This document shows positions 3,423 through 61,145 of a DNA stretch of 64,000 nt, in pieces. The translations under genes were made by a program, and so were the position numbers. Each line of letters begins with the position of its first letter. The stretch's first letter is position 1. This DNA is from Escherichia coli (GTDB taxonomy: Bacteria > Pseudomonadota > Gammaproteobacteria > Enterobacterales > Enterobacteriaceae): NCBI RefSeq assembly GCF_048403405.1, contig NZ_CP183129.1. One strand, written 5' to 3'. The notes beneath the pieces are model-generated. The model searched no databases and was not told the DNA's origin. It worked only from the letters and a program-made list of their open reading frames with translations.

Positions 3423-4541
3423 ATGCATAACCAGGCTCCAATTCAACGTAGAAAATCAACACGTATTTACGTTGGGAATGTGCCGATTGGCGATGGTGCT
3501 CCCATCGCCGTACAGTCCATGACCAATACGCGTACGACAGACGTCGAAGCAACGGTCAATCAAATCAAGGCGTTGGAACGTGTTGGCGCTGATATCGTCC
3601 GTGTCTCAGTACCGACGATGGACGCGGCAGAAGCGTTCAAACTCATCAAACAGCAGGTTAACGTGCCGCTGGTGGCTGACATCCACTTCGACTATCGCAT
3701 TGCGCTGAAAGTAGCGGAATACGGCGTCGATTGTCTGCGTATTAACCCTGGCAATATCGGTAATGAAGAGCGTATTCGCATGGTGGTTGACTGTGCGCGC
3801 GATAAAAACATTCCGATCCGTATTGGCGTTAACGCCGGATCGCTGGAAAAAGATCTGCAAGAAAAGTATGGCGAACCGACGCCGCAGGCGTTGCTGGAAT
3901 CCGCCATGCGTCATGTTGATCATCTCGATCGCTTGAACTTCGATCAGTTCAAAGTCAGCGTGAAAGCGTCAGACGTCTTCCTCGCTGTTGAGTCTTATCG
4001 TTTGCTGGCAAAACAGATCGATCAGCCGCTGCATCTGGGTATCACAGAAGCCGGTGGTGCGCGCAGCGGGGCGGTTAAATCCGCCATTGGTTTAGGTCTG
4101 CTGCTGTCTGAAGGCATTGGCGACACGCTGCGCGTATCGCTGGCGGCCGATCCGGTTGAAGAGATCAAAGTCGGTTTCGATATTTTGAAATCGCTACGTA
4201 TCCGTTCGCGCGGGATCAACTTCATTGCCTGCCCGACCTGTTCGCGTCAGGAGTTTGATGTTATCGGTACGGTTAACGCGTTGGAGCAACGCCTGGAAGA
4301 TATCATCACTCCAATGGACGTTTCGATTATCGGCTGCGTGGTGAATGGCCCAGGTGAGGCGCTGGTTTCTACACTCGGCGTCACCGGCGGTAACAAGAAA
4401 AGCGGCCTCTATGAAGATGGCGTGCGCAAAGACCGTCTGGACAACAACGATATGATCGACCAGTTGGAAGCACGCATTCGTGCGAAAGCCAGTCAGCTGG
4501 ACGAAGCGCGTCGAATTGACGTTCAGCAGGTTGAAAAATAA
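3423..4541 (+). CDS. ispG: 4-hydroxy-3-methylbut-2-en-1-yl diphosphate synthase (IspG/GcpE)
   Basis: 372-aa [26 protein letters not shown]...; C-terminal CPTCSR Fe-S motif. Confidence 0.95.
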
Positions 4542-4651
4542 TAACGTGATGGGAAGCGCCTCGCTTCCCGTGTATGATTGACCCCGCATGGCTCCCGAAA
4601 CATTGAGGGAAGCATTGAGGGTTCATTTTTATATTCAGAAAGAGAATAAAC

Positions 4652-19100: not shown

Positions 19101-21203
19101 GATGTCATTTTCACGGTGATAACCAGCCCGGATTCGCCAAAAGCGAAATACTGGGGCCATATGCCGGAAACGTTTACCAGTTCGGCAGGCGTGACCTTCA
19201 AGCGCCCATTACTGGCAGCGGAAGCGACTACGGGGAGCTCGGTAAACGGTAATAATGAGACATGGTCATATATATATAGTACTCAAAAAGCGACGGCAGA
19301 TTGTTCGCTGGAATATCAACCGCGCCTCAGCGAATTGCAGGGGTTATATGACGATCACCCAAACGGGGCGTTAACGAAAGATCTGGGGTTGCCGATAGCG
19401 TCAGGAAACTGGTGGATTTATGAATTGCTTAACTCCAATGGTAGCTCCTGGTATTACCAGGTCTTTAACCTAAGTACGGGACGAGCATCATCCGCACTCT
19501 CTCCGGTTGCTCTAATGCTCTGCCTGGCACAGCCTCACTCTAAGCCGTCAAGCGTTACCCTGACTTCAATAGCATTTGATGAGACGAGAACCGCAAGTAA
19601 CGGCGGTACACCTTCGGCATCGGCGAAAAAGGGCGAGACAATCCCGTTAGTCGTGACAGTAAAAGACCAAAATGGCAACCTGCTGAGTGGCGAGAGCGTG
19701 ACGCTTCAGCGGGCACAGGCGAAAAGTCGTTCAGGAATTAGGCCCTCATCGTCGGCAGATGATCTTATTGTAGATGTCATCACACCGACAGCGGTCAGCA
19801 TTCCCTTTACTCAGGATACGGCAAAATGGCTTGGCTTTACCGGCAGTGATGGCACAGTGACGTTCAATGTTACGCAAAACGCCACCACCGGCCTGGCAAC
19901 GCCGTTTACGGTCTCGCTTGCACAAGATCCGCAGATCACGTCAAACCTGGACCTGATATTTACCGTGGTCACCAGCCCTGACTCCCTGGATGCCAACTAC
20001 TGGGGCCATATGCCAGAAACGGTGACAGCGGCAAATGGAACCGTCTTTGAACGACCGAAATTGTGGAAGGAACTGCCATCGACCTCCGGGGTAAATAAAA
20101 CCAATAACAATAATGAGGACTGGCCCTATTTTTCGTCAACCACTAAAGCAAATTCCAGCCTCAGCCCTTGTGAGGAAGCCCGGCAACCGTTGCTCAGCGA
20201 TATGAAGTCACTGTATCAACGTTATCCCAATAACACCCTTACGACGGAAACTGGCTGGTCAGTTTATTATTACTGGTGGGCGCAGGATAAGACTACAGAT
20301 GGTAAAAATCAGTCGCTCAATATGAAAGATGGCACAACGACATTGAATGGTAATGCCGCTTATCAGGCGTGTCTGGTGTCTGCGCGCGCGACGGTTTCCA
20401 GCGTCACACTGACCTCAACAGCGTTTGATGCTGACAGCCAGGCGGCGAAAGTGAAAAAAGGCGAAGCCATGCCCGTTACCGTGACGGTGAAAGACAGCGC
20501 CGGGAATACGGTACCGAATGTGGAATTTACTTTGAAACGTGGCGATGCATCGCCGCGTAACGCTGGGGCGACGTTGTATGGTGATGTGGTGGCGATGGAC
20601 GATCTCATCGTTCAGCCGTTATCTGGTTCGGCTGTTACGCTGAGTGAAAGCGGTAATACCATTAGTGGCATGACAGGCGCGGATGGGACGGCAAGTTTTA
20701 CGCTCCGCCAGGATAATACCCCTGGTTATAAAACGCCACTGACGGTTACTCTGGCTAATTACGCTTCCGCGACAGACACGCTGGACGCTATTTTTACGGT
20801 ACCAACCAGCCCGAATGTTTCCTCGGCGCACTTTTGGGGACATATGGCAGACACTGTAGTGGTGAATGGTAAATCGCTACATCGACCGTTGTTAACGACA
20901 GAATTGCCGTCCGGGGCTAATCCCGTATCCTCACCGATTATTAACTACGAAAACTGGGCTTCTGCACATATCATTGATGCCAGTAAATGGGATATTGCAA
21001 GGCAGTGTGGCAGCATAGAAAATGCACCGACATACAATGAATTAGAGTTGTTGCACACTGTTTTTAATTCACTGGGATGGCCGTCTTCACCAAGTTTTCC
21101 TTATTTGTCCTCTCAACAGTGTGGGATGGACGAAGGCACTGGAGCACAGGATTGTAGTATCACGCTAATGAATAAACCGGGTCTGGTGACCTGCTTCCAG
21201 TAA
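13161..21203 (+). CDS. ratA: giant repeat-containing surface protein (RatA-like)
   Basis: 2680-aa uninterrupted ORF with signal peptide and about 9 tandem ~283-aa repeats each carrying FTV(I/V)TSPD...WGHM. Confidence 0.8.
14050..20900 (+). repeat. tandem ~850-bp coding repeats inside ratA-like gene
   Basis: TSPD...WGHM motif recurs at approx. 14.10, 14.91, 15.72, 16.56, 17.41, 18.26, 19.12, 19.97, 20.80 kb. Confidence 0.75.
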
Positions 21204-24335: not shown

Positions 24336-25913
24336 ATGACGGAAAACATTCATAAGCATCGCATCCTCATTCTGGACTTCGGTTCTCAGTACACTCAACT
24401 GGTTGCGCGCCGCGTGCGTGAACTGGGTGTTTACTGCGTACTGTGGGCGTGGGATGTGACAGAAGCACAAATTCGTGACTTCAACCCAAGCGGCATTATT
24501 CTTTCCGGCGGCCCGGAAAGCACCACCGAAGAAAACAGCCCGCGTGCGCCGCAGTATGTCTTTGAAGCAGGCGTACCGGTATTCGGCGTTTGCTATGGCA
24601 TGCAGACCATGGCAATGCAGTTGGGCGGTCACGTTGAAGCCTCTAACGAACGTGAATTTGGCTACGCGCAGGTTGAAGTCGTAAACGACAGCGCACTGGT
24701 TCGCGGTATCGAAGATGCGCTGACTGCAGACGGTAAACCGCTGCTCGATGTCTGGATGAGCCACGGCGATAAAGTTACCGCTATCCCGTCCGACTTCGTC
24801 ACCGTAGCCAGCACCGAAAGCTGCCCGTTTGCCATTATGGCCAACGAAGAAAAACGCTTCTACGGCGTACAGTTCCACCCGGAAGTGACTCACACCCGCC
24901 AGGGTATGCGCATGCTGGAGCGCTTTGTGCGTGATATCTGCCAGTGTGAAGCCCTGTGGACGCCGGCGAAAATTATCGACGACGCTGTAGCTCGCATCCG
25001 CGAGCAGGTGGGCGACGATAAAGTCATCCTCGGCCTTTCTGGTGGCGTGGATTCCTCCGTAACCGCAATGCTGCTGCACCGCGCTATCGGTAAAAACCTG
25101 ACTTGCGTATTCGTCGACAACGGCCTGCTGCGTCTCAACGAAGCAGAGCAGGTTCTGGATATGTTTGGCGATCACTTTGGTCTCAATATTGTTCACGTTC
25201 CGGCAGAAGATCGCTTCCTGTCAGCGCTGGCTGGCGAAAACGATCCGGAAGCAAAACGTAAAATCATCGGGCGCGTTTTCGTTGAAGTATTCGATGAAGA
25301 AGCGCTGAAACTGGAAGACGTGAAGTGGCTGGCGCAGGGTACTATCTACCCTGACGTTATCGAATCTGCGGCGTCTGCAACCGGTAAAGCACACGTCATC
25401 AAATCTCACCACAACGTGGGCGGCCTGCCGAAAGAGATGAAGATGGGCCTGGTTGAACCGCTGAAAGAGCTGTTCAAAGACGAAGTGCGTAAGATTGGTC
25501 TGGAGCTGGGCCTGCCGTACGACATGCTGTACCGTCATCCGTTCCCGGGACCAGGCCTTGGCGTTCGTGTTCTGGGTGAAGTGAAGAAAGAGTACTGTGA
25601 CCTGCTGCGCCGCGCTGACGCCATCTTCATTGAAGAACTGCGTAAAGCGGGCCTGTACGACAAAGTCAGCCAGGCGTTCACCGTCTTCCTGCCAGTACGT
25701 TCCGTTGGCGTAATGGGCGATGGTCGTAAGTATGACTGGGTTGTCTCTCTGCGTGCTGTCGAAACCATCGACTTTATGACCGCACACTGGGCGCATCTGC
25801 CGTACGATTTCCTCGGTCGCGTTTCCAACCGCATTATCAATGAAGTGAACGGTATTTCCCGCGTGGTGTATGACATCAGCGGCAAGCCGCCAGCTACCAT
25901 TGAGTGGGAATGA
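24336..25913 (+). CDS. guaA: GMP synthase (glutamine-hydrolysing)
   Basis: 525-aa ORF; N-terminal glutamine amidotransferase (GVCYGMQ), ATP-PPase SGGVDSSV motif. Confidence 0.95.
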
Positions 25914-25960
25914 TTAACAGCTAACTCATAGCAAATCATTCCTATTCAGATGCCAACTCA

Positions 25961-25992: not shown

Positions 25993-26105
25993 ATGTATTC
26001 ATTTCTATTCACTCTACACCATATTTTTCGGCGGTACAGGTGACGGTATTACCTTAAAGGTATACTCTCATACCGTCATGAAAATGGTTTCTATACGGGT
26101 GAATT

Positions 26106-27356
26106 GTGCTTACCGATACAAAATTAAAAAACCTCAAGCCGCAGGACAAACTGTACAAGGTCTCCGATCGTGACGGGCTGTATGTAGCTGTGCTTACGTC
26201 AGGCACGGTCTCGTTTCGCTATGACTACCGTATCAACGGTCGCCGCGAAACACTGGTAATCGGGCAGTATGGGCGTGACGGTATCAGCCTGGCAGAAGCG
26301 CGAGAAGAACTGATTGCTGCAAAGAAGCTGCTTAAAGCAGGCCAGTCACCGGCTGCGGCTAAACGTGACGGTATCAAAAAGATTCGTGGTGCCGAGACGT
26401 TTGCGGTACATACCGACAGTTATATGAAACATGTCATCCTGGCTGACAGTACCCGCGCAATGAAGCAGGCGGTGATCGACCGTGACATACTTCCGGTTCT
26501 TGGCAACAAAATGATGACTGAAATTACCACATCGATGGTTCGTGATTTGTGTGACCGGATTGTCGAACGCGGTGGTCGGGCAACAGCAGTGCAGGCCAGG
26601 GAGATCATCAGCAGCGTATACCGTCACGCCAATGACCGTGGTCATGGTTTGTTTAATCCTGCGGCTGACATTAAACCTTCGTCTATCGCCATATTTAAAC
26701 CACGAGAGCGAACACTGACGCCAGAAGAAATTGGCCTGTTCTTCCGCACGCTGGATGCCATTGGTGCTATGGGCACTATGAAAATGGCTTTAAAGCTGGT
26801 GCTTATCACTATGGTTCGTAAAGGCGAATTCACCAATGCAACGTGGGACGAAATAGATTTTAAAAAATGGACATGGACAATTCCTTCAGACCGCATGAAG
26901 GGAAGCCGGGCGCATGTTATTTACCTGCCTAAACAGGCACAGGATATATTGGTCGGGTTGCAGATGTGCGCTGGTGGAAGTGAATATCTGGTTCCTGGTC
27001 GTTACAACTTCCGGAAGCCATTATCTAATGCCGCGCTGAACTCTCTGATCGACAGAACGGTGAAAATAATAAATGAAGATGGTGAGCATATTCAGGACTT
27101 CACCGTACATGATATGCGCCGTACAGCCAGTACGTTGTTGCATGAGGCTGGTTATCCTTCAGACTGGATTGAAAAGGCTCTGGCACATGAGCAGAAAGGT
27201 GTGCGCGCCGTATATAACAAAGCGGAATACGCCAGACAGCGCGCCTACATGTTGCAGCAGTGGGCCGATATGATTGATTCCTGGATTGACGGGGAGCATA
27301 CGGATCTGATTCCGTTCTCCCCGTCGAAGTTTGAGAAGTGGATGGCGGGAGAATAA
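26106..27356 (+). CDS. int: tyrosine integrase (P4-like family), prophage left end
   Basis: 416-aa ORF, GTG start; N-terminus MLTDTKLKNLKPQDKLYKVSDRDGLY typical of P4-type integrases; C-terminal catalytic region (HDMRRTASTLL...Y). Confidence 0.9.
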   Translation: MLTDTKLKNLKPQDKLYKVSDRDGLYVAVLTSGTVSFRYDYRINGRRETLVIGQYGRDGISLAEAREELIAAKKLLKAGQSPAAAKRDGIKKIRGAETFAVHTDSYMKHVILADSTRAMKQAVIDRDILPVLGNKMMTEITTSMVRDLCDRIVERGGRATAVQAREIISSVYRHANDRGHGLFNPAADIKPSSIAIFKPRERTLTPEEIGLFFRTLDAIGAMGTMKMALKLVLITMVRKGEFTNATWDEIDFKKWTWTIPSDRMKGSRAHVIYLPKQAQDILVGLQMCAGGSEYLVPGRYNFRKPLSNAALNSLIDRTVKIINEDGEHIQDFTVHDMRRTASTLLHEAGYPSDWIEKALAHEQKGVRAVYNKAEYARQRAYMLQQWADMIDSWIDGEHTDLIPFSPSKFEKWMAGE

Positions 27357-30600: not shown

Positions 30601-30896
30601 GCCGCGTCCCTCTGTCCATCAAGCTGATCCGCCAGATCCCAGCGGGCGATAATTGCCATTGCCTCTCGCCGGTAGGCATCCATCAGTTCTTCGAACTCAG
30701 GGCTGTCTTTAGCAGCCTCCAGTACTTCCTGACGAACGCCTTTGCCTGTTACAACGTCGAAAGTTGAGGACAGTTGATGAAGTCGGATGCTCTCAATCAG
30801 TTCAACTTGTCGGTCATATAGCTGTTCTGACAGGCGGTAGTCCTTGTCGAATGCCAGCATGATTTTTTGAAGATTTTTCTGCTGATTAACGTTCAT
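30597..30896 (-). CDS. hypothetical early-left protein
   Basis: ORF overlapping the exonuclease start; start likely ATG 30896 (MNVNQQ...). Confidence 0.45.
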   Translation of the reverse strand: MNVNQQKNLQKIMLAFDKDYRLSEQLYDRQVELIESIRLHQLSSTFDVVTGKGVRQEVLEAAKDSPEFEELMDAYRREAMAIIARWDLADQLDGQRDAA

Positions 30897-31070
30897 TATC
30901 AGCCCTCCCATATCTCGTTATCGTTGGCCACATCGCGAGCTTCTTTGCTGACGAAAGCCCACTTAATGCCTTCCTGTAAGGTGCGGAACTTCCAGCTCAT
31001 GAATCCGCATGCAGTAACGCAGTACCAACCGTTGATGATTTTCCACTGCATAACTTGTTACCTCGGTCTG

Positions 31071-31147
31071 TTACCGTTGAGGTAATGATTATGCGTATCT
31101 GGTTTGATGTCAATAGATATGAGTTAAAAAAATTACCCAACAGGTAA
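31071..31147. promoter_or_regulatory. OL-like operator pair: two perfect TTACC-N5-GGTAA palindromes
   Basis: TTACCGTTGAGGTAA at 31071-31085 and TTACCCAACAGGTAA at 31133-31147, between the repressor terminator and the leftward early genes. Confidence 0.55.
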
Positions 31148-31155
31148 TCTAACAG

Positions 31156-31184
31156 GCAATAAAAAAGCCGCCATGAGGCGGCTT
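31156..31184 (-). terminator. rho-independent terminator downstream of repressor gene
   Basis: aagccgcc-atga-ggcggctt hairpin with a run of A on + strand (U-tract on - strand). Confidence 0.65.
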
Positions 31185-31204
31185 ACTTGCTGAAAACTAT
31201 AGTT

Positions 31205-31789
31205 TTATTGTTTGTTTTTTTCGTTCTGGTTGATGACAAATTCAATGTAACTTTCGATCTTTGCTTTCTCGGTTTCGGGTAACAATGCGTAGCGCGAGCG
31301 GTCATAGTTGATAGTCGCAGGGTCGTGCGGGTGAATCAGTAATTCATAGCCATGACGCCCGAATGCGGATGCAACATTCTCCAGGGTGGAAATGGAAACG
31401 CTGACCTCATTGTTTAACAGGCGGCTGATTGTCACCTGGGCGACGCCGGATGCGCGGTGTAGTTTTCCCTGCGTTGAAAGGTCGCGGCTTTCGCTCATCC
31501 AGCGTTCCAGGTTGTGAGCAGCCAGCTGACCTATATCACTCGGGCCGACAGGCTGAAAACCTTCCTGAGAAAGCGAGCGATCGATATCAAGCCAGTTACG
31601 GGGTTTATTGGCGGCAGCTTCAATTTTTCGCGCAACCTGGTCGCCGATAACCTTCTTGCCAAGAGCCCAGCGGTTTACCAGATTTGCCTGAGTTCCAAGT
31701 TTTTCTGCCATCCGCGTCTGAACACCATTGAATTCACGGTCGATCAAGTCGTTGAGATTTTGCCTGCGGACGTCCTGGATACTTTTCAT
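31205..31789 (-). CDS. prophage repressor candidate, tandem HTH (XRE-type), no LexA-like peptidase domain
   Basis: 194-aa ORF divergent from cro-like gene; two HTH-like segments (TRMAEKLGTQANLVNRWALGKK and ASGVAQVTISRLLNNE); no Ser-Lys autocleavage domain recognisable. Confidence 0.65.
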   Translation of the reverse strand: MKSIQDVRRQNLNDLIDREFNGVQTRMAEKLGTQANLVNRWALGKKVIGDQVARKIEAAANKPRNWLDIDRSLSQEGFQPVGPSDIGQLAAHNLERWMSESRDLSTQGKLHRASGVAQVTISRLLNNEVSVSISTLENVASAFGRHGYELLIHPHDPATINYDRSRYALLPETEKAKIESYIEFVINQNEKNKQ

Positions 31790-31844
31790 TTTCTGGAAAA
31801 TCGCCTCATATATGAATCAGTAGATGATTCAATTTAAAGCAATA

Positions 31845-31908
31845 TTACCCAACAGGTAAATGCACCTCATAGGTAACTATCCTTGATTTTTGTTACCTTA
31901 TGGGTGAA
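31845..31908. promoter_or_regulatory. OR-like operator cluster: one perfect and two imperfect TTACC-N5-GGTAA sites
   Basis: TTACCCAACAGGTAA 31845-31859 (identical 15-mer to OL site), gCACCTCATAGGTAA 31862-31876, TTACCTTATGGGTgA 31894-31908, between repressor and cro-like starts. Confidence 0.55.
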
Positions 31909-31943
31909 TATTTATTATCTGAAATAAATATCAGGCAATAGCT

Positions 31944-32174
31944 ATGAGCGATAACGGACATTTCGATTTCAAAAAGCACTGGCTTGCACTTACTCCGGAC
32001 GAGCGTGAAGCCTTCGCACAGGAAGCCGGAACGACGAGTCACTATATCCAGACTCACTTAACAGGTAAGCGCAAAATGCCAGGTAAGGTATTGATGGATG
32101 GGCTTTTTAAAGCCTGTAAAACAAGACAATGGCTGCGCTCAAAAGCAGAACTGGCATACTTCTTCTACTCATGA
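31944..32174 (+). CDS. Cro-like DNA-binding protein
   Basis: 76-aa ORF divergent from repressor across the operator cluster. Confidence 0.6.
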   Translation: MSDNGHFDFKKHWLALTPDEREAFAQEAGTTSHYIQTHLTGKRKMPGKVLMDGLFKACKTRQWLRSKAELAYFFYS

Positions 32175-32196
32175 TATCCAGCTACAACCCTCTGTA

Positions 32197-32220
32197 GACC
32201 GCCACCCGGCGGTCTTTTCA
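32197..32220 (+). terminator. rho-independent terminator after cro-like gene (tR1-like position)
   Basis: gaccgcc-accc-ggcggtc followed by ttttca; imperfect operator gTACCTCAAAGGTAA follows at 32230-32244. Confidence 0.6.
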
Positions 32221-32340
32221 TATCTATTCGTACCTCAAAGGTAATAAAAAACCAAATCTGGTTGATCAAATTTTCCAATTGTGCAAAAATAGCCAATATC
32301 AATAACAAAAAGGTGCGGAAAAATTGAAGATAGTAACCAG

Positions 32341-32536
32341 AATGGAGGCCGCAAAAGCCGGGTTAAATCGCTATTTCACAGGAAAGCGGTGCCGTCACGG
32401 CCATCTCTCTGAAAGGTATGTTCTGAACGGAACATGTGTTGAATGTGCAATGAATAGCGCCAACCGCCATCGTAATGAATTTGCTTGTGCACTAAAGAGT
32501 GCAAGAGGGGAAACCTATGGCAAGCAGCTGGATTAA
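32341..32536 (+). CDS. small zinc-binding protein in cII-like position
   Basis: About 65 aa from ATG 32341 with CRHGH...CVEC cysteines; between cro-like and O-like genes. Confidence 0.4.
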
Positions 32537-33347
32537 GGTTGAAGTTATCACTCCTGATAAACCTGAAATTTTTCAGATAGCAGAAATTCTGGGTATTGAT
32601 CCAGATGCTGTTCTTGGAAAGCTGGTTCGTATATGGGCATGGGCTGACCAGCAAACAATAGACGGTAACGCTGGCAGCGTTACAAAAGGAGTACTTGATA
32701 GACTCGCTTTTATTACAGGATTTGCTGACGCCCTCATTAGCGTCGGATGGCTTGCTTATCATGACGGCAAACTAATTCTTCCAAACTTTGAGCGACACAA
32801 TGGAGAATCATCGAAAAAACGTGCACTTACGAATAGAAGAGTGGCAGAGCATCGAAAACGAGTAACGCAAAAAGTAACGCCAACAGCGTTACAAAAGGAG
32901 TTACCAGAGGAAGAGGAAGAGGAAGATATATATAAAACCCCACACATAGCGCACGTGCGCGAGAGTGCTCCGACCAGTGAGTCGAGTGGTACGCCGTTGC
33001 AGGCAGCAGAACCTGCATCCCTGGATGGCCTGAGTGAACCCATCGGGAAATTTCCGATGACCGATGGCTGGCATCCGTCGCCGGATTTTCGACGGCGTGC
33101 TGCGCTGTGGGGAACGGCCCTGCCGGAACCGGAATTTACACCTGCTGAACTTGCTGCATTCCGGGATTACTGGATGGCTGAGGGCAAAGTGTTCACGCAG
33201 GTTCAGTGGGAACAAAAATTCGCCAGGCACGTAAATCATATCAGGGGAAAATCAAAAAACGCCGGGAAAAGCGATGAGCTTGACTGGAATAACACTGACT
33301 GGATAGAAGGGGTGTGGGATGAAATCAACTCCAGAACTTCTCAATGA
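32517..33347 (+). CDS. replication initiation protein (lambda O-like position)
   Basis: 276 aa from ATG 32517; acidic linker EEEEEEDIY; immediately upstream of and overlapping a clear lambda P homolog. Confidence 0.55.
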
Positions 33348-34132: not shown

Positions 34133-34209
34133 TTACCTGCAGGGTAACAAAATATTCTAAACTCTATTGATTTCGTGTCTTATGTGGTTTTTAATTACCT
34201 CAGAGGTAA
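34133..34209. promoter_or_regulatory. two perfect TTACC-N5-GGTAA palindromes upstream of the 34213 gene
   Basis: TTACCTGCAGGGTAA 34133-34147 and TTACCTCAGAGGTAA 34195-34209; the second overlaps the RBS; ATGTGGTT motif at 34181-34188. Confidence 0.5.
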
Positions 34210-37956: not shown

Positions 37957-37971
37957 TTACCACAACGGTAA
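37957..37971. promoter_or_regulatory. perfect TTACC-N5-GGTAA palindrome upstream of terS
   Basis: TTACCACAACGGTAA 18 bp upstream of the terS ATG. Confidence 0.5.
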
Positions 37972-37988
37972 CTATTACCACGGTGGTT

Positions 37989-38585
37989 ATGATGCCTGCT
38001 GAACCTAAAACCTATAAACGCAAATCAACGCAATTTAAGCCGCTCACAGCAATGCAGGAGGCTTATTGCCAGTCATACATCAAAACGCCTGAAAACCAGA
38101 CTCAGGCAGCGATTAACGCAGGATTCTCCCCAAATACAGCGGCAGTTAAAGCCAGTGTCATGATGCGCGATGAACGCATTCAAAAACGGATTGCCGAGTT
38201 GATGGAGGAGCGCAACAAACGAATGCGCGTCAGTGCTGATTACGTTCTCATGCGCCTGGTGGAGATCGACCAGATGGACGTGATCGATATCCTCAACGAC
38301 GATGGGAGCCTTAAACCAATCCGCGAGTGGCCGAAAATCTGGCGCACTACGCTTAGTGGCTTTGATCTGTCATCGACCATCATGAACATGAACGAGGATT
38401 CGATAGAGACAATCCTCAAAAAAATTAAATGGCCTGACAAGGTGAAGAACCTCGAACTGATTGGTAAGCACGTCGACGTCAACGCATTCAAAGAACGCCT
38501 GGATGTTAATGTGAATGTGACAATTGCTGATCGCATAGCGGCAGCCAGGAAGCGACTCAAAGAACGTCAGGATGGTAATCAGTGA
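37989..38585 (+). CDS. terminase small subunit
   Basis: About 198 aa immediately upstream of and overlapping terminase large subunit; basic N-terminus, HTH-like segment. Confidence 0.7.
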   Translation: MMPAEPKTYKRKSTQFKPLTAMQEAYCQSYIKTPENQTQAAINAGFSPNTAAVKASVMMRDERIQKRIAELMEERNKRMRVSADYVLMRLVEIDQMDVIDILNDDGSLKPIREWPKIWRTTLSGFDLSSTIMNMNEDSIETILKKIKWPDKVKNLELIGKHVDVNAFKERLDVNVNVTIADRIAAARKRLKERQDGNQ

Positions 38586-40702: not shown

Positions 40703-40779
40703 TGGCGTGGCATGCAGGATTCGAACCTGCGACCAACCGCTTAGAAGGCGGTTGCTCTGTCCAACTGAGCTAATGCCAC
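40703..40779 (-). tRNA. tRNA-Arg (anticodon UCU), phage-encoded, CCA end encoded
   Basis: Reverse complement GTGGCATTAGCTCAGTTGGACAGAGCAACCGCCTTCTAAGCGGTTGGTCGCAGGTTCGAATCCTGCATGCCACGCCA folds as cloverleaf; anticodon loop CTTCTAA; T-arm GGTTCGAATCC; close to E. coli argU. Confidence 0.85.
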
Positions 40780-41101: not shown

Positions 41102-41116
41102 TTACCTGAAGGGTAA
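41102..41116. promoter_or_regulatory. perfect TTACC-N5-GGTAA palindrome upstream of head gene cluster
   Basis: TTACCTGAAGGGTAA; ATGTGGTT motif at 41160-41167. Confidence 0.5.
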
Positions 41117-56559: not shown

Positions 56560-57411
56560 ATGAAAAAAATAAATTTGTTTTTTGGCATAGTGCTTTCAAT
56601 AGTCTCTGTAAATCCTACAGCTGCCAGTTCATTGCAATGCAATAAGGATAACTTTGATGCATGCAAAACGTGCGAACAATTATCAAAGGCTATCGACTTA
56701 AAAGAACCTAATCGTGGCGATTACTATAGAGGGGCTTTATGGAATGGGCTTTACGCCTCTTATGTAATTAATTGCCCTGTGGTTGCAGAGAAGTTACTGA
56801 GCCATGGTGCTATACCATCATATGGCGGATATATGGGGTCTATGGGGGCGGTTCTGACAGGAAAATGGCCTCATAACAATGAATCAATAAATCTTTCATG
56901 GGCAGATTTGCTTATAAAACATGGATTTGATGTTAATAGGCATACGGGGAATTATAAATCAGCTACTGAAGTATGGGCTATAGATAAAAAACAGATTGAA
57001 TATAAGTCAGTTTTTGACAAGTTAATTCAATCCAGCGAAGTAAAACCACTCGATCCTTCAAGAAATTTAGAATGGTGTGCGTCTGAAGGGTATCGCTCAG
57101 TTGTCGTTTATTCCCTTAACTCATGTATAGAAAATGCTATAAAACGTTTGGATGACGGTGTTTCTTCAGCGTCTGATATTTCATCAGCAGCCGTAAATTC
57201 CTGTACTAGCGATGTAGAAAATTTCAATAAGCATTTGGCATGCAAAGCAGCTGTTAAAGAAAACTCTGATAAAGAGAGAAGCAACGTTTACCAGTTATTA
57301 ACCAGTGATAGTCAAATGAATAAAAATGTTATTGATATGCTGAAGGAAAGAAATATTGAAACGGTTCTTGAATTTAGAGCTGAAAATCGATCAGCGAAAA
57401 CTGCACAGTGA
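56560..57411 (+). CDS. secreted moron protein, low GC, possible ankyrin-like repeats
   Basis: 283-aa ORF with signal peptide MKKINLFFGIVLSIVSVNPTAAS; markedly AT-rich relative to flanking late genes; weak ankyrin-like segments (VAEKLLSHGA, ADLLIKHGFDVN). Confidence 0.55.
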   Translation: MKKINLFFGIVLSIVSVNPTAASSLQCNKDNFDACKTCEQLSKAIDLKEPNRGDYYRGALWNGLYASYVINCPVVAEKLLSHGAIPSYGGYMGSMGAVLTGKWPHNNESINLSWADLLIKHGFDVNRHTGNYKSATEVWAIDKKQIEYKSVFDKLIQSSEVKPLDPSRNLEWCASEGYRSVVVYSLNSCIENAIKRLDDGVSSASDISSAAVNSCTSDVENFNKHLACKAAVKENSDKERSNVYQLLTSDSQMNKNVIDMLKERNIETVLEFRAENRSAKTAQ

Positions 57412-57673: not shown

Positions 57674-57697
57674 CAAAAAAGCCCGCAGCGCGGGCTT
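57674..57697 (-). terminator. rho-independent terminator after small membrane protein gene
   Basis: agcccgc-agc-gcgggct hairpin with A-run on + strand (U-tract on - strand). Confidence 0.6.
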
Positions 57698-57929
57698 ACT
57701 TTTCTTCAGGTTTGTTGTCTTCAGATTTCTTCTTGATGCTTGGTTTTTGTCTAAGACCGAAAATACCAGCCACTGCAACAACTGTACCGATCACTGTGCC
57801 AGCTAGAACTTCATGACCTGTTAAACCTAATAATGTTGCACAAGCTACTGTAAAAATAGTTGCACTCAGGCCAAACCACTGCCCACGTTTATCTCTATTA
57901 ATAGCCCCGTCAAGTGCCTTTTCCTCCAT
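57696..57929 (-). CDS. small two-TM membrane protein
   Basis: 77-aa ORF; hydrophobic segments WFGLSATIFTVACATLLGL and VIGTVVAVAGIFGL; Lys-rich C-terminus. Confidence 0.45.
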   Translation of the reverse strand: MEEKALDGAINRDKRGQWFGLSATIFTVACATLLGLTGHEVLAGTVIGTVVAVAGIFGLRQKPSIKKKSEDNKPEEK

Positions 57930-58169
57930 TTTCTGGCGGTGAGCAAACTCCTTCTCCGTCAGCTGGAAGATGCGTTCGGGGGCATCAGGTAAAATATCCT
58001 GATACCCGCGAAGCAGATAGGGGGAGGAAGCGGACCCTGAAACGCATGGTGAGCGACAACTATCTCCTGAATTTCAGGGCGATCAAGAACTCTTGTGAAG
58101 GCATCTGGGTGTTGAATGATCTCGTTACTTAGCCCTTCCTCAACTTCCTCGAACTCAGTTTCTTCGTTA

Positions 58170-58496
58170 TCACTTGGTTGCCCAATAGATTTTTGCATAT
58201 TTGTCGAAGGACATTCCTTTAGCTTCTGGTTTTCCTCTTGCATTTGAGTTTTTCCCTGTCACTATTGCCCATTTTCCGCCAGCAGGCGCTGCAATTTTTT
58301 TTCCGTTCTTTACTATATATTCAGCATAAACACGATTTTCTGACCGTCTGAGATCGTCTCCGACCATATTCATGTCTCTTGATATAACTTTGACGACAGA
58401 GTCTCGGTTTAAAGCCTTGGCATAGTTGGAGCCAGGAACGATACCCAAAGGGGTGCCAGACTCTATAGCCAGCTCCTTGACATATCTTCTGCTCAT
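58170..58496 (-). CDS. hypothetical protein (possible small DNA-binding protein)
   Basis: 108-aa ORF from ATG 58496 (MSRRYVKELAIESG...); a perfect TTACC-N5-GGTAA site lies 22 bp upstream. Confidence 0.4.
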   Translation of the reverse strand: MSRRYVKELAIESGTPLGIVPGSNYAKALNRDSVVKVISRDMNMVGDDLRRSENRVYAEYIVKNGKKIAAPAGGKWAIVTGKNSNARGKPEAKGMSFDKYAKIYWATK

Positions 58497-58517: not shown

Positions 58518-58532
58518 TTACCAATCGGGTAA
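58518..58532. promoter_or_regulatory. perfect TTACC-N5-GGTAA palindrome
   Basis: TTACCAATCGGGTAA upstream of the 58496 gene. Confidence 0.5.
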
Positions 58533-58617: not shown

Positions 58618-59310
58618 TCAGAAGAACCCTGCTTTGTCGTTGATGTACTCCGCGTGCGTCTGGATATCACGCAGGCATTTGCTCACACCGACGATGTAGC
58701 AGAACATGGTGGTCAACTCCGCCGCCGCGCCCGATACGTCGTGCCCGTCTTCCTGTAACTGGTTTAGCAGATTCATCAGCAGTGAGTTCTCCGTCAGGCC
58801 GAGAACACCAGACGGCGAATGAATCAGGCTGCGGTAGCCGGGCTTCAGTGGGGCGCTGTAGGTTTTGTTCTCTACCTTCATTGCCTGCATCACTGCTGAT
58901 GCTGTGGCGTTGGCTACCTGGTCGGCAACCATCTTTATGCGTTCTTCCTGCGGGAGCGAGTTTTTAATGTAACTTCCGGTGCGGCGGATCTGAGGAAGAA
59001 CCTCACCTGTAACCCATTCAAGAAATCTGAATGCTCTCGTTCCCTCAGTCATTGCCTCTTTGCAACGCAGAATAAGGATGTAGAGACCTGATTCTGAAAC
59101 GATGGATAGTTCTTGTATTCCACCAGGGGTCTGTATTGAATACAGCCCCTTTTTGTTCCAGCCTTTTTTATCAAGTTTTCTCGCTTGTGTAACATCAATA
59201 TTCAAAGCATTGCACACATCTTTGGTGACAAACCAAGGTTCTCCGTCAATCATGAACATACGGATCTGGCAGGATGACTCAAAGGAAAAGATGGAAGGTT
59301 TGGTATTCAT
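58618..59310 (-). CDS. antirepressor, Bro-N domain plus C-terminal antirepressor domain
   Basis: N-terminus MNTKPSIFSFESSCQIRMFMIDGEPWFVTKDVCNALNI is a Bro-N/KilA-N-type signature; C-terminal domain has a paralog at 60693-60950. Confidence 0.7.
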   Translation of the reverse strand: MNTKPSIFSFESSCQIRMFMIDGEPWFVTKDVCNALNIDVTQARKLDKKGWNKKGLYSIQTPGGIQELSIVSESGLYILILRCKEAMTEGTRAFRFLEWVTGEVLPQIRRTGSYIKNSLPQEERIKMVADQVANATASAVMQAMKVENKTYSAPLKPGYRSLIHSPSGVLGLTENSLLMNLLNQLQEDGHDVSGAAAELTTMFCYIVGVSKCLRDIQTHAEYINDKAGFF

Positions 59311-59577
59311 AGCGATCACCTTTGTAGTTAGGTTAATCACCACCGCTGAGACCAATCAGATGGTGGTGAACTGTGCAGAGTTGGTCTTACCGGCTACAAA
59401 GGAACCCGGCGCACCTTTCGGTGCCCCCACACAGCCCACCATAGAATAGGTGCGCTTTACACATAAAAAAACCGCTTATGCGGCATATGTGCCTCTGTAG
59501 TAATCCGGGAGACCAATCCCGGCACTGGATTTTGCCAGTGCCCGATTACTATGGCACAAGAGGAGTGCAATGTAAAT

Positions 59578-59592
59578 TTACCGAAAAGGTAA
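59578..59592. promoter_or_regulatory. perfect TTACC-N5-GGTAA palindrome about 270 bp upstream of antirepressor
   Basis: TTACCGAAAAGGTAA. Confidence 0.5.
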
Positions 59593-59753
59593 TAATAAAT
59601 GCATAACTCACGTTATTTCAACCCTATATGGTTTGATTTATCCCATTTCAGAAAATACCTGCCTATTTTTTTGCCAGTATGCGTATACTTTCGATAGAAT
59701 GTTTACCCTAGAGGTAGTTGGGGGTGCCCGTGAACACGAAGAGAGCTACAGTA

Positions 59754-60173
59754 ATGCAGCATTTGAGGAAATCAGAAAAAAATAAAGACCATGAAATATT
59801 GAGTAAGGCCATTGTTCGGGCTTCCAATAATACTGTTATACCTCATGCTGAAGAGTCTGGACAGAAATTTCTTATTCGGTATTTCACTGAAAATAGTGCA
59901 GTTGAGGAGATTTTAAAACATCAGGGAGGGGAATTTAAATGTGGAAAACTGGCAGATTATGTTCGTCGTGAAACGTCTGAACAAGAAGTATATTATGCTG
60001 ATATTAATCATAAGTCAGGTGTGAAAATTGTAATAGGCTATTACACAACTCCCAAAAATGTTATGCATGAGGTCCCAAAGATGTCCGTCGAGAAATCTCA
60101 TGCAATCTCGCGCAGGATGTTTGCACGCACTGCCGAAGATATGGCTCAGGAGCTCTACGACGATGCTGAATAA
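59754..60173 (+). CDS. hypothetical protein, candidate partner of YafO-like toxin
   Basis: About 140 aa from ATG 59754; stop overlaps the start of the downstream gene (ATGCTGAATAA); low GC. Confidence 0.5.
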   Translation: MQHLRKSEKNKDHEILSKAIVRASNNTVIPHAEESGQKFLIRYFTENSAVEEILKHQGGEFKCGKLADYVRRETSEQEVYYADINHKSGVKIVIGYYTTPKNVMHEVPKMSVEKSHAISRRMFARTAEDMAQELYDDAE

Positions 60174-60668
60174 ATTCCAGGGGTTGGTTCACCCTGGAAT
60201 TTTTGGGAAGGACCCTGAGCTAATACCTATCAAAAACGCGTTCATAGATCACTGGCGCTACGGTCATCATAAGGATTTCGGAAAGGACACTCTGTTTCGG
60301 GATCCACCGAAAGAAATGCTGGAATATCACATACGCCACGTTCACGTAAACATCGGAAACTATACTGACAAGTTTGGTGAGAGCGGTACGGACAATGCTG
60401 GAAAAACTGGGCGTCTGGGAAGAAAGACAAGACCACTAACAAGCATAAAAAGATCCCAACCAGTGACGTGTATGTGATTTATCTGGTCACATCTGAACGC
60501 CATGCCTTCCTTCTGGATTATTGGGATGAACCAGCACATAAGACAGTAGAAATTGACGAGCAGAAGCAAAAATTAGTTGTCGAGTGTGACAGAATTTTGC
60601 GGCTGAAAAAGTTAGAATCCATGCCGCGCGATGCTAGTTTGTGGGACCCAGAATTTTACGACTGTTAA
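60163..60668 (+). pseudogene. YafO-like toxin gene interrupted by a frameshift (or sequencing error)
   Basis: N-terminal part in one frame (to 60477: ...FGKDTLFRDPPKEMLEYHIRHVHV) and C-terminal part in another (60381-60668: ...VYVIYLVTSERHAFLLDYWDEPAHK) both resemble E. coli YafO as I recall it; frames overlap 60381-60477. Confidence 0.45.
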
Positions 60669-60669
60669 T

Positions 60670-60694
60670 GGCCGCTTTCGCGGCCTTTAAATTT
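60670..60694. terminator. terminator hairpin (ggccgctttcgcggcc), copy 2
   Basis: Identical 16-bp hairpin to 57419-57434, followed by tttaaattt. Confidence 0.65.
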
Positions 60695-60950
60695 ACCGGG
60701 TTTGTTTTCGTAATTGTTCGGCACAATAGTCGAGATGTGTTTGCAGATCCCGCATAGACATCTGTGAGCTGGTGACGTAGTTAATCAGTGCAGTCAGTTC
60801 GGCAAGTGGGCCATCGACATTAAATCCATCCTTATCGAGATCCCGGAGTAATTTCATCAAGTGCGATCCCTCCACCAGTGACCTGACGCCTCCCGGCGTG
60901 TGAATCCTTTCGGTAAATCCGTCTTCCAGTGGATAGTGATACTGCTGCAT
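60693..60950 (-). CDS. free-standing antirepressor C-terminal-domain paralog
   Basis: About 85 aa from internal ATG (MQQYHYPLEDG...); shares L..LL..L..DG..V.G..AELT.....Y.......RD.QTH..Y pattern with the C-terminus of the 58618-59310 antirepressor. Confidence 0.5.
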   Translation of the reverse strand: MQQYHYPLEDGFTERIHTPGGVRSLVEGSHLMKLLRDLDKDGFNVDGPLAELTALINYVTSSQMSMRDLQTHLDYCAEQLRKQTR

Positions 60951-61026
60951 CTTATCTTCTCCATGCAATAACTGTATGTTTATACAGTAACAAATAATTT
61001 GTTTGCTATCCAGCACGTTTTGCAAA

Positions 61027-61041
61027 TTACCTGAAAGGTAA
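61027..61041. promoter_or_regulatory. perfect TTACC-N5-GGTAA palindrome between ant-C paralog and tailspike
   Basis: TTACCTGAAAGGTAA; ATGTGGTT motif at 61074-61081. Confidence 0.5.
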
Positions 61042-61145
61042 TATCTATTCGTATTTACAGCCTTTCTATCCATATGTGGTTTTTCAGGTAATAGAATAAC
61101 CAGATATGCGGCGCAACGGGTGCTGCGACTATCTGGAGATTTAAC

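Follow-up and report, generated by a model that had tools for sequence, protein, structure and literature searches.

The closest described counterpart of the locus analysed here is the Rep-Ant lytic switch of phage SPC32H (Kim & Ryu 2013, J Virol 87:11775; Kim et al. 2016, PNAS 113:E2480; PDB 5D4Z, 5D50). As outlined in PMC7380047, which cites Kim & Ryu 2013 among others, in Salmonella prophages the self-cleavage of LexA leads to the production of the antirepressor, and the repressor is inhibited by protein-protein contact. According to the lines devoted to SPC32H in PMC9638917, Rep is a tetramer when bound to DNA, and Ant, itself a tetramer, binds two Rep dimers, breaking the Rep tetramer apart. 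A non-cleavable repressor combined with a LexA-controlled antirepressor gene located away from the immunity region is also the logic sketched in PMC7380047 for Tum of phage 186 and for GfoA/GfhA of the Gifsy prophages. In Gifsy-1, anrP is transcribed from the isrK promoter, on a long transcript that is translationally silent and that short IsrK activates (Hershko-Shalev et al. 2016, PMC4825925). The sole experimental paper on an E. coli member of the group, phage ZX5, tested a Bro-N protein and did not mention LexA (PMC9782041).

We analysed a 64-kb stretch of E. coli DNA, hereafter the window. The segment 31071–32244 is the immunity (immC) region of a common E. coli prophage of the ε15/phiV10 type (Uetakevirus). 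We consider it very probable that the reading as a whole is right, with a Uetakevirus immC, a repressor (Rep) without autocleavage, and induction by the SOS response through a LexA-controlled antirepressor (Ant). The finding of an antirepressor switch is correct but ordinary, as the mechanism is already known from SPC32H and nothing new is added to it. The location of the features is given in Table 1.

Table 1. Genes, RNAs and candidate regulatory sites of the prophage, in window coordinates. Mismatches are relative to TTACC-N5-GGTAA.
Feature	Position	Strand	Remarks
Palindrome	26049–26063		1 mismatch; between attL core and integrase gene; same sequence 5' of int in SPC32H and phiV10
OL-a, TTACCGTTGAGGTAA	31071–31085		Palindrome with perfect arms; abuts the -10 hexamer of a minus-strand promoter-like site
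Putative PL, TTGACA-17-AATCAT	31085–31113	minus	10/12 consensus matches; faces the leftward recombination genes
OL-b, TTACCCAACAGGTAA	31133–31147		Perfect palindrome
Intrinsic terminator 3' of rep	31165–31184	minus	8-bp stem with 6 GC pairs, then a T run
Repressor Rep	31205–31789	minus	194 aa; two HTH-like segments, no S24 peptidase domain
OR-1, TTACCCAACAGGTAA	31845–31859		0 mismatches
OR-2, GCACCTCATAGGTAA	31862–31876		2 mismatches
OR-3, TTACCTTATGGGTGA	31893–31907		1 mismatch; inside the spacer of a plus-strand promoter-like site, 31890–31918
cro-like gene	31944–32174	plus	76 aa; PHROG 35 "transcriptional repressor", E 5.6e-13
Intrinsic terminator 3' of cro-like gene	32196–32215	plus	
Palindrome, GTACCTCAAAGGTAA	32230–32244		1 mismatch; precedes replication genes; identical site in phiV10
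Palindrome pair	34133–34147 and 34195–34209		62 bp apart, ahead of DUF1064 gene; equivalents in phiV10, SPC32H and ε15
Two adjoining palindromes	37957–37989		Directly 5' of the small-terminase start codon
Palindrome	41102–41116		Precedes the head-gene cluster; ε15 equivalent annotated as repressor-binding
Palindrome	58518–58532		Abuts a promoter-like site (minus strand) that precedes the PHROG 10654 gene
Second antirepressor	58618–59310	minus	230 aa; N-terminal Bro-N and Ant-like C-terminal domain
C4 antisense RNA gene	59359–59446	minus	Rfam RF01695, 78.6 bits (gathering score 45)
isrK-type Hfq-binding RNA	59465–59541	minus	Rfam RF01394, 74.7 bits (gathering score 50); terminator 59471–59484
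Palindrome	59578–59592		Abuts the -10 of promoter-like site 59621→59592 (TTGAAA-18-TATTAT), 5' of isrK
Palindrome	59703–59717		1 mismatch; just past plus-strand promoter-like site TTGCCA-18-TAGAAT, ahead of PHROG 9503 gene
Antirepressor Ant	60693–60950	minus	85 aa
Predicted LexA box	60970–60989		TACTGTATAAACATACAGTT as read along the ant strand; its end lies 19 nt 5' of the ant start codon
Rep-type palindrome	61027–61041		ant/tailspike intergenic segment; ε15 equivalent annotated "protein_bind: repressor"

Prophage and immunity region

The prophage sits at the 3' end of guaA with the attL core at 25900–25916, and the attachment core attgagtgggaatgatt is present in the window. Integration at guaA with this same core was described for phage ZX5 (PMC9782041). 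The window is made of a 25.9-kb host part and a 38-kb prophage part, and its end falls inside the prophage. The immunity region was found in 560 of 5426 complete E. coli genomes (approximately 10%). In E. coli strain CM2, it was 99.9% identical, and the genes adjoining the integrase differed from those of the window. Many lysogens with this prophage came from avian-pathogenic and extraintestinal strains.

The DNA of the immunity region was 97–99% identical in the group formed by phiV10, ZX5, EC.W1-9 and TL-2011b. For phiV10, ZX5 and EC.W1-9, which are isolated, propagating phages, the identity over the region was 98–100%. This near-identity argues against the prophage being a decaying remnant whose switch no longer governs a viable phage, as do the full-length ORFs (Rep, the cro-like protein, Ant, integrase, terminase, portal, capsid and tailspike) and the intact regulatory sites. 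Two cargo genes, each broken into two ORFs (PHROG 3996 at 57696–58243 and PHROG 1651 at 60169–60668), and the extension of the prophage past the window end speak for such a decay, which we regard as unlikely. The sole match of the second split gene was PHROG 1651, of unknown function, and from its sequence this gene is suspected to be YafO-like. Neither the cargo proteins nor the two antirepressors had a match in NCBIfam.

The initial annotation had described a repressor with two HTH-like segments and without a LexA/CI-type peptidase, and both points were borne out by the HMM search. In Pfam, residues 106–147 matched HTH_3 (E 4.9e-5), residues 21–67 gave weaker HTH-type matches (YdaS_toxin, E 0.0047; HTH_3, E 0.14), and Peptidase_S24 was absent even at E ≤ 10. 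The C-terminal S24 domain, Ser-Lys dyad and cleavage site of LexA/lambda CI-type repressors were not found in Rep. Both halves of the protein were covered by PHROG repressor/regulator families. Rep aligned over its full length (residues 1–190) with the SPC32H Repressor (PDB 5D50_A, E 4e-42), and it also matched 5D4Z_A, corresponding to residues 92–198 of SPC32H Rep (E 4e-20). It was 100% identical to phiV10 gp40, whose record already carries the note "two helix-turn-helix motifs ... putative repressor", and 42% identical to SPC32H Rep, with the N-terminal domain, including the NLVNRW stretch, kept between the two. A RecA-dependent cleavage of Rep by some unrecognised mechanism is extremely improbable: no support for it was found in this analysis, Rep is without S24, and homology to the SPC32H Rep structure leaves none of its 194 residues unexplained. 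Kim & Ryu 2013 reportedly saw no cleavage of the SPC32H protein itself during the SOS response. In ZX5, overexpression of the repressor ORF21, which has the same sequence as phiV10 ORF40, brought the transcripts of endolysin and holin down by over 99.9% (PMC9782041).

As initially annotated, rep is divergent from the cro-like gene over three palindromes (OR-1 to OR-3), and a second pair, OL-a and OL-b, both perfect, lies past the rep terminator and ahead of the leftward recombination genes. OL-a and OL-b are 62 bp apart with the putative PL between them. The three-site OR layout is common to SPC32H and ε15, with spacings of 17 and 30–31 bp. The phiV10 record shows terminators at places matching both terminators of the region. 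The cro-like protein had no Pfam, NCBIfam or PDB sequence match, and it is so called because of its position and of a single PHROG 35 profile match.

Distribution of the palindrome

The palindrome TTACC-N5-GGTAA is spread over the prophage. With at most one mismatch, 17 matches were counted in the 64-kb window, compared to 1.06 expected, and none of 100 shuffles reached 17. All ten perfect palindromes were located within the 38 kb of prophage, and the 25.9 kb of host DNA contained no perfect one. The counts were of the same order in SPC32H (18, with 0.52 expected), phiV10 (14, with 0.64 expected) and ε15 (15, with 0.61 expected). Approximately 15 intergenic sites are marked in this way, and the palindromes occupy matching intergenic positions in the window, SPC32H, phiV10 and ε15. 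In the ε15 record, those preceding terS, gp3, gp19/gp20 and the leftward genes, as well as those behind the replication genes, bear the label "protein_bind: repressor (lysogeny)".

The palindromes might not be, or not only be, Rep operators, and might be bound by the Cro-like protein or a different phage regulator, or form RNA hairpins. Three of them directly adjoin a -10 hexamer on its downstream side and therefore would be transcribed, and Cro-type proteins generally use the same operators as their repressor. This explanation is very unlikely in view of the location of the densest clusters at the rep/cro and leftward promoters, where operators are expected, and of the 5-bp stem, which is too weak to matter as RNA structure. 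The annotators of the ε15 record ascribed the palindromes to the repressor, and the N-terminal domain of Rep is conserved between the window and SPC32H, which share the same half-sites. A covariation of palindrome and repressor was looked for in the relatives and none was observed, SPC32H and ε15 keeping the TTACC/GGTAA half-sites. No argument can be drawn from covariation because the half-sites are unchanged, although SPC32H Rep is only 42% identical. With Rep as the protein that reads the palindromes, the unchanged half-sites would fit its conserved N-terminal domain.

The two antirepressors

The initial annotation had proposed that induction is driven by antirepressors, each encoded behind the same palindrome. 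The two palindromes are present as described (Table 1), and the proposal stood as regards the proteins, Rep and Ant being homologous to the SPC32H complex 5D50. It contained no trigger, and the LexA box at 60970–60989 has been found since. That the antirepressor genes lie in the late region had been seen as unusual, which proved mistaken: this position is the norm in the family, ant being divergent from the tailspike gene here as in SPC32H, ε15 and phiV10. This placement also recalls P22 and P1 immI.

Ant is the protein initially described as a free-standing C-domain paralog. The start chosen by the ORF program gave 126 aa (60693–61073). We set the start at the ATG at 60950, giving 85 aa, because this codon has GGAG ahead of it and is conserved in eight aligned relatives. 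Ant matched PDB 5D50_E, "Anti-repressor protein", with an E value of 1.4e-46; it was 86.7% identical to SPC32H ant (tblastn) and belongs to PHROG 450. We assume that the Rep-Ant interface is retained, although Rep is only 42% identical to its SPC32H counterpart, against approximately 87% for Ant.

The segment 60970–60989 is a predicted, near-consensus LexA-binding site at the ant promoter. It was the sole match in 64 kb to TACTGT-N8-ACAGTA at one mismatch or less. The box is kept in eight related phages of E. coli, Salmonella, Enterobacter and Klebsiella, in which the inner bases vary. No sigma-70 promoter was found for ant in a consensus scan, and a hand search for hexamers near the LexA box was unconvincing. 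The location of the box directly 5' of ant implies that induction would still be SOS-driven, through LexA and not through RecA-stimulated cleavage of the repressor. The combination of an SPC32H-type Ant and a recognised LexA box thus suggests that induction of the lysogen should depend on SOS and on LexA. This arrangement also predicts that the prophage could become constitutively lytic through the change of one base in the LexA box. Phage SPC32N is reportedly constitutively lytic through such a single-base change. Among the E. coli matches listed, the RefSeq label of ant was "hypothetical protein", and there is no NCBIfam model for Ant. The practical value of the present work is one of annotation, with an immunity region found in about one tenth of the complete E. 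coli genomes and an inducer gene labelled hypothetical.

The two antirepressors differ in kind. The small one belongs to the SPC32H Ant type, whereas the other is a Bro-N fusion placed behind isrK and C4 RNAs, in an operon without a LexA box at one mismatch or less in the 64-kb scan. Its Bro-N domain was recognised by Pfam (E 4e-13), and residues 149–222 were 43% identical to Ant over 74 residues (E 1e-16), the C-terminal domain retaining 16 positions invariant across Ant proteins. The fusion protein was 80% identical to the ZX5 anti-repressor ORF4, and 100% identical in EC.W1-9. The isrK and C4 RNAs were also above the Rfam gathering thresholds in phiV10, ZX5, Tyrion and a Klebsiella phage.

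Two segments of C4, the loop CCUUUGUAG, whose counterpart sequence is CUACAAAGG, and AGACCAA, are complementary to the leader of the Bro-N gene, ribosome-binding site included. C4 CCTTTGTAG pairs with CTACAAAGG, overlapping the AAAGGTG ribosome-binding site of the Bro-N gene, and the leader sequence TTGGTCT is the partner of AGACCAA. Further upstream, isrK contains copies of both C4 targets, TTGGTCT and CTACAGAGG. As to a small coupling ORF of the icd/orf45 type between the RNA and the antirepressor gene, a candidate 28-codon ORF overlaps C4, and the ZX5 record shows an "ash family protein" over its C4; no clear coupling ORF emerged. Transcription of isrK, C4 and the Bro-N gene would start from the promoter-like site 59621→59592, and the isrK-C4 module probably blocks translation of the Bro-N protein in the lysogen. 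No experiment on the isrK/C4/Bro-N module in ε15-like phages was found in the literature.

The authors of the ZX5 study assumed that the Bro-N fusion is the main inducer, and small Ant would then be redundant or serve another purpose. In its favour, overexpression of ORF4 lowered the prophage titre from 10^9 to 10^6 (PMC9782041), and the C-terminal domain retains the Ant-invariant positions mentioned above. We find this alternative distinctly unlikely. The ZX5 experiments covered ORF4 and not the small gene, which is called "hypothetical protein" in the ZX5 record. The Bro-N operon has no LexA box, and the complementarity of the C4 loops to the Bro-N ribosome-binding site suggests that this gene is kept silent. 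In SPC32H and ε15, no Bro-N gene is found beside ant, and SPC32H is cited in PMC7380047 as antirepressor-induced. The SPC32H-type Ant remains our preferred inducer.

Proposed circuit and comparison with known systems

We propose the following circuit. The N-terminal HTH domain of Rep would bind DNA, and the C-terminal HTH-like domain would serve oligomerisation and the binding of Ant. The TTACC-N5-GGTAA operators would be three at the divergent rep/cro promoters and a pair flanking the leftward promoter, with about ten further ones preceding int, the replication, packaging/head and cargo genes, and both antirepressor genes. In this model, DNA damage would activate RecA, LexA would cleave itself and vacate the box at 60970–60989, and the 85-aa Ant would be produced. 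Ant would bind Rep and remove it from the DNA, and the lytic promoters would fire. The ant promoter may then open further because a Rep operator is also located upstream of ant. The Bro-N antirepressor would carry the same Rep-binding domain as Ant, behind the isrK-C4 module. The model draws on the homology of Rep and Ant to a solved complex, on the missing S24 domain, on the conservation of the LexA box and the palindromes, on the RNA families and on the complementarity between C4 and the leader. From these we infer the actual binding, that Rep stays uncleaved, the sequence of the steps and the part played by the Bro-N copy.

It is possible, although we lean against it, that in the ε15-like phages of E. 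coli, Enterobacter and Klebsiella two signals reach one non-cleavable repressor through two antirepressors with a shared Rep-binding domain. Ant would report DNA damage through LexA, while superinfection, or some condition other than SOS, would be signalled by the Bro-N::Ant fusion by way of an isrK/C4 RNA switch. The presence of both antirepressor genes behind Rep operators would, on this reading, make the switch self-reinforcing. No description of this dual wiring was found in the literature, in which each module is known separately.

Among known systems, SPC32H shares with the window a full-length Rep homologue without S24, an Ant approximately 87% identical and a LexA box directly 5' of ant. 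In both, rep and a small cro-like gene form one divergent pair and ant and the tailspike gene another, and TTACC/GGTAA half-sites occupy matching positions. The LexA box of the window differs from that of SPC32H by an inversion of its inner bases, and Rep is only 42% identical; the Bro-N::Ant fusion, the isrK and C4 RNAs and the cargo genes are absent from SPC32H. The authors of the SPC32H work are said to regard its Ant as structurally distinct from the Tum and Gifsy antirepressors. The logic is the same as that of 186 Tum and of GfoA/GfhA of Gifsy-1/-3 (Lemire et al. 2011), a likeness that follows the description given in PMC7380047.

The genome plan is that of ε15 (Kropinski et al. 2007, Virology 369:234). 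The ε15 record notes the similarity of its repressor to 5D50_A; ε15 has no Bro-N/isrK/C4 module, and gp19, the Ant homologue, is still labelled hypothetical. The Bro-N operon resembles P1/P7 immI (c4, icd, ant) and Gifsy-1 isrK-orf45-anrP, in that isrK- and C4-family RNAs precede an antirepressor gene, RNA loops are complementary to the downstream ribosome-binding site, and an operator of the primary repressor lies at the operon promoter. It differs from them in its antirepressor, whose C-terminal domain belongs to the SPC32H Ant type. The genes ant, isrK, C4 and Bro-N follow one another in this order with nothing between in phiV10, ZX5 and Tyrion, whereas in the window approximately 1.1 kb of plus-strand cargo lies between ant and isrK.

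The prophage and its repressor

The prophage started at the 3' end of guaA, where its attachment core attgagtgggaatgatt (25900-25916) was the one also reported for phiV10, ε15 and vB_EcoP_ZX5 (ZX5) (PMC9782041). The DNA at 30800-32600 showed 97-99% identity to Escherichia phages phiV10, ZX5, TL-2011b, HEMP4 and others, which are ε15-like podoviruses of the genus Uetakevirus, and this immunity region was found in 560 of 5426 complete E. coli genomes. The prophage also contained a tRNA-Arg gene (anticodon TCT; 40703-40779, minus strand), placed between terminase and portal; at this position phiV10 gives an Rfam tRNA match and SPC32H, the Salmonella phage whose Rep-Ant complex was crystallised (PDB 5D50), likewise has a tRNA-Arg gene. 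The host sRNA gene sroE (4541-4632, plus strand; RF00371, 108 bits), in the chromosomal part of the window, had no relation to the immunity switch.

The initial annotation had credited the repressor, Rep, with two HTH-like segments and no peptidase domain, and the HMM search that it proposed agreed with this: Pfam placed an HTH_3 domain at residues 106-147 (E 4.9e-5) and weaker HTH-type matches at residues 21-67 (YdaS_toxin, E 0.0047; HTH_3, E 0.14), and the S24 peptidase was not found in Rep by this search. Both halves of the protein were covered by PHROG repressor families. Rep aligned over its full length with the SPC32H repressor of PDB 5D50 (E 4e-42), to which it was 42% identical, and its C-terminal half aligned with PDB 5D4Z. 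The SPC32H repressor is reportedly not cleaved in the SOS response. Rep was 100% identical to phiV10 gp40 (ORF40), whose record already states two helix-turn-helix motifs and a resemblance to the ε15 repressor. According to the ZX5 paper, the repressor of that phage, ORF21, and phiV10 ORF40 do not differ in sequence, and with ORF21 overexpressed, transcripts of endolysin and holin fell by more than 99.9% (PMC9782041). As summarised in PMC9638917, SPC32H Rep binds DNA as a tetramer with pairs of DNA-binding domains drawn from different dimers, and one tetramer is enough for repression.

Distribution of the putative operator palindromes

The palindrome TTACC-N5-GGTAA, allowing at most one mismatch, was present 17 times in the window for 1.06 expected, a number reached in none of 100 shuffles. 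The perfect copies were confined to the prophage part (10 of 10); the 25.9 kb of host DNA contained no such copy. SPC32H, phiV10 and ε15 possessed 18, 14 and 15 palindromes, respectively (0.52, 0.64 and 0.61 expected). The positions at int, at the leftward and rightward regions, after the replication genes, and at the terminase, the head cluster and ant were common to these relatives, and the two cargo palindromes were specific to the cargo of the window prophage. Three clustered palindromes between the repressor and the divergent cro-like gene, a second pair beyond the repressor terminator before the recombination genes, and one ahead of each antirepressor gene had been described from the sequence, and all were recovered (Table), as were the other features listed in the initial annotation. 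In the ε15 record such palindromes already bear the label "protein_bind: repressor (lysogeny)", and a similarity of the ε15 repressor to 5D50_A is noted there, so that the operator set is predicted in the public record too.

Genes, palindromes and RNA elements of the immunity system (window coordinates)
Feature	Position	Strand	Remark
Integrase gene	26106-27356		after attachment core
Repressor Rep	31205-31789	-	194 residues
Terminator downstream of rep	31165-31184	-	
Divergent 76-aa (cro-like) gene	31944-32174	+	
Bro-N protein	58618-59310	-	
C4 antisense RNA	59359-59446	-	RF01695, 78.6 bits (gathering score 45)
isrK-type RNA	59465-59541	-	RF01394, 74.7 bits (gathering score 50); terminator at end
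Antirepressor Ant	60693-60950	-	PDB 5D50_E match, E 1.4e-46
Palindrome ahead of int	26049		
Leftward palindrome pair	31071, 31133		both perfect, beyond rep terminator
Palindromes between rep and 76-aa gene	31845, 31862, 31893		perfect; two mismatches; one mismatch
Palindrome after cro terminator	32230		
Palindromes ahead of DUF1064 gene	34133, 34195		
Palindromes ahead of small terminase gene	37957, 37975		
Palindrome ahead of head cluster	41102		
Palindromes ahead of two cargo transcription units	58518, 59703		
Palindrome upstream of Bro-N gene	59578-59592		
Palindrome upstream of ant	61027		

The leftward pair flanked a promoter-like site (TTGACA-17-AATCAT) facing the recombination genes. 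Its spacing and that of the pair at the DUF1064 gene were exactly 62 bp, each pair bracketing a promoter-like sequence, and two 62-bp pairs were similarly present in phiV10 (31953/32015 and 35070/35132), SPC32H (33604/33666 and 35972/36034) and ε15 (32555/32617 and 35907/35969). This spacing could suit a single Rep tetramer on two operators.

The small antirepressor gene and its LexA box

Ant, first seen as a free-standing paralog of the antirepressor C-domain, corresponded to the antirepressor chain of 5D50, the crystal complex that also contains the Rep homologue. It was 86.7% identical to SPC32H ant and, across 74 residues, 43% identical to the Bro-N protein. The start codon was preceded by GGAG; the ORF tool gave a 126-aa ORF beginning upstream of this real ATG. 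No NCBIfam model matched Ant. The small gene is very probably the principal antirepressor; RefSeq entries for E. coli genomes and most phage records, those of ZX5 and ε15 included, still call it 'hypothetical protein'. The initial annotation was right to locate the antirepressors in the late region and mistaken in finding this unusual: SPC32H has the same gene order, in which rep and a small gene diverge from each other, as do ant and the tailspike gene at the distal end of the structural module, and the location is therefore the family norm. According to PMC9638917, the tetrameric SPC32H Ant binds two Rep dimers and the Rep tetramer is broken.

Over the whole 64 kb, a search for the LexA consensus had one hit, differing at one position, at 60970-60989, and no LexA-like box lay near rep or the Bro-N operon. 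On the ant strand this box reads TACTGTATAAACATACAGTT, with 19 nt between its end and the ant start codon. The ant-tailspike intergenic segments of eight phages of E. coli, Salmonella, Enterobacter and Klebsiella were aligned. The arms of the box (CTGTAT and ATACAG) were kept, as was the palindrome ATTACC-N5-GGTAA upstream of it, and the bases inside each element varied; the two Klebsiella phages showed ATGTAT instead of CTGTAT in one arm. Compared with the SPC32H box (19958-19977), that of the window had unchanged arms and its four inner bases inverted (AAAC versus GTTT on the ant strand). Such a pattern would be expected if a symmetric protein-binding site were under selection. SPC32N, the sister phage of SPC32H, is reported to be constitutively lytic through a single base change in its LexA box. 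The box would be the induction trigger that the initial annotation lacked.

The literature consulted is in accord with this reading. In several Salmonella prophages, as summarised in PMC7380047, where Kim & Ryu 2013 is cited for SPC32H, LexA self-cleavage leads to synthesis of an antirepressor which inhibits the repressor through protein-protein contact. In the window prophage, the homology of Rep and Ant, the presence of the palindromes and of the LexA box, and the conservation of these sites are established, and from them we infer binding and the order of events. DNA damage would cause LexA cleavage and, with it, Ant synthesis; Ant would then remove Rep from its operators and allow lytic transcription. 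The proposal of an antirepressor-driven induction is thus supported, Rep and Ant both being homologous to chains of the SPC32H complex in 5D50.

The Bro-N gene, its RNA module and known switches

The Rfam scan located the isrK-type and C4 RNAs directly upstream of the gene for the Bro-N protein (a Bro-N domain with an Ant-like C-terminal domain), on the same strand. A promoter-like site (TTGAAA-18-TATTAT, 59621 to 59592) abutted the palindrome at 59578-59592. Of two C4 segments, CCTTTGTAG was complementary to CTACAAAGG, a stretch overlapping the Bro-N ribosome-binding site, and AGACCAA to TTGGTCT of the leader; upstream copies of both targets lay in the isrK region. The isrK-C4-Bro-N order also existed in phiV10, ZX5, Enterobacter phage Tyrion and one Klebsiella phage and was absent from SPC32H and ε15. 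Neither RNA was annotated in the phage records examined. In the ZX5 record, an 'ash family protein' CDS (361-474) overlapped the C4 match (347-432), and in the window a 28-codon ORF overlapped C4 likewise; this may be either a real coupling ORF comparable to orf45 or icd, or an ORF-calling artefact over an RNA gene.

Two adjacent plus-strand ORFs in different frames (60169-60477 and 60468-60668) each matched one half of PHROG 1651 (unknown function), reflecting either a frameshift or a sequencing error. Together with a PHROG 9503 gene (59718-60173), they formed a ~1.1-kb insertion of cargo between ant and isrK, absent from phiV10, ZX5 and Tyrion. Another interrupted cargo gene was represented by the minus-strand ORFs 57696-57929 and 57959-58243, the first matching the C-terminal part and the second the N-terminal part of PHROG 3996 (a membrane protein of the moron category). 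The structural module ended with a 283-aa plus-strand ORF (56560-57411) whose N-terminus resembled a signal peptide; it matched PHROG 6118 (unknown function) over its full length (E 1e-200), and no gene of that size stands at this place in phiV10 or SPC32H.

We take the isrK-C4-Bro-N layout to be that of the P1/P7 immI operon and of the Gifsy-1 isrK-orf45-anrP locus. In Gifsy-1, the long transcript is translationally silent, and AnrP, which is antirepressor-like, is turned on by the short IsrK (PMC4825925). In their C-terminal domains, the Bro-N proteins had 16 invariant positions in common with the free-standing Ant proteins, and overexpression of the ZX5 homologue (80% identical to the window protein) lowered the prophage titre (PMC9782041). 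Because of the RNA module, the common positions and this drop in titre, it is plausible that Rep can also be inactivated by a second route, gated by RNA. No description of this route was found for these phages; some novelty lies in this part alone, which is outside the claim made initially. The LexA box, the small gene as principal antirepressor and the RNA module before the Bro-N gene are the corrections of use. The immunity system itself is a member of the SPC32H-type Rep/Ant switch, which is already known: the structure of the complex is solved, an identical repressor occurs in isolated and partly tested phages, and the ε15 operators are annotated.
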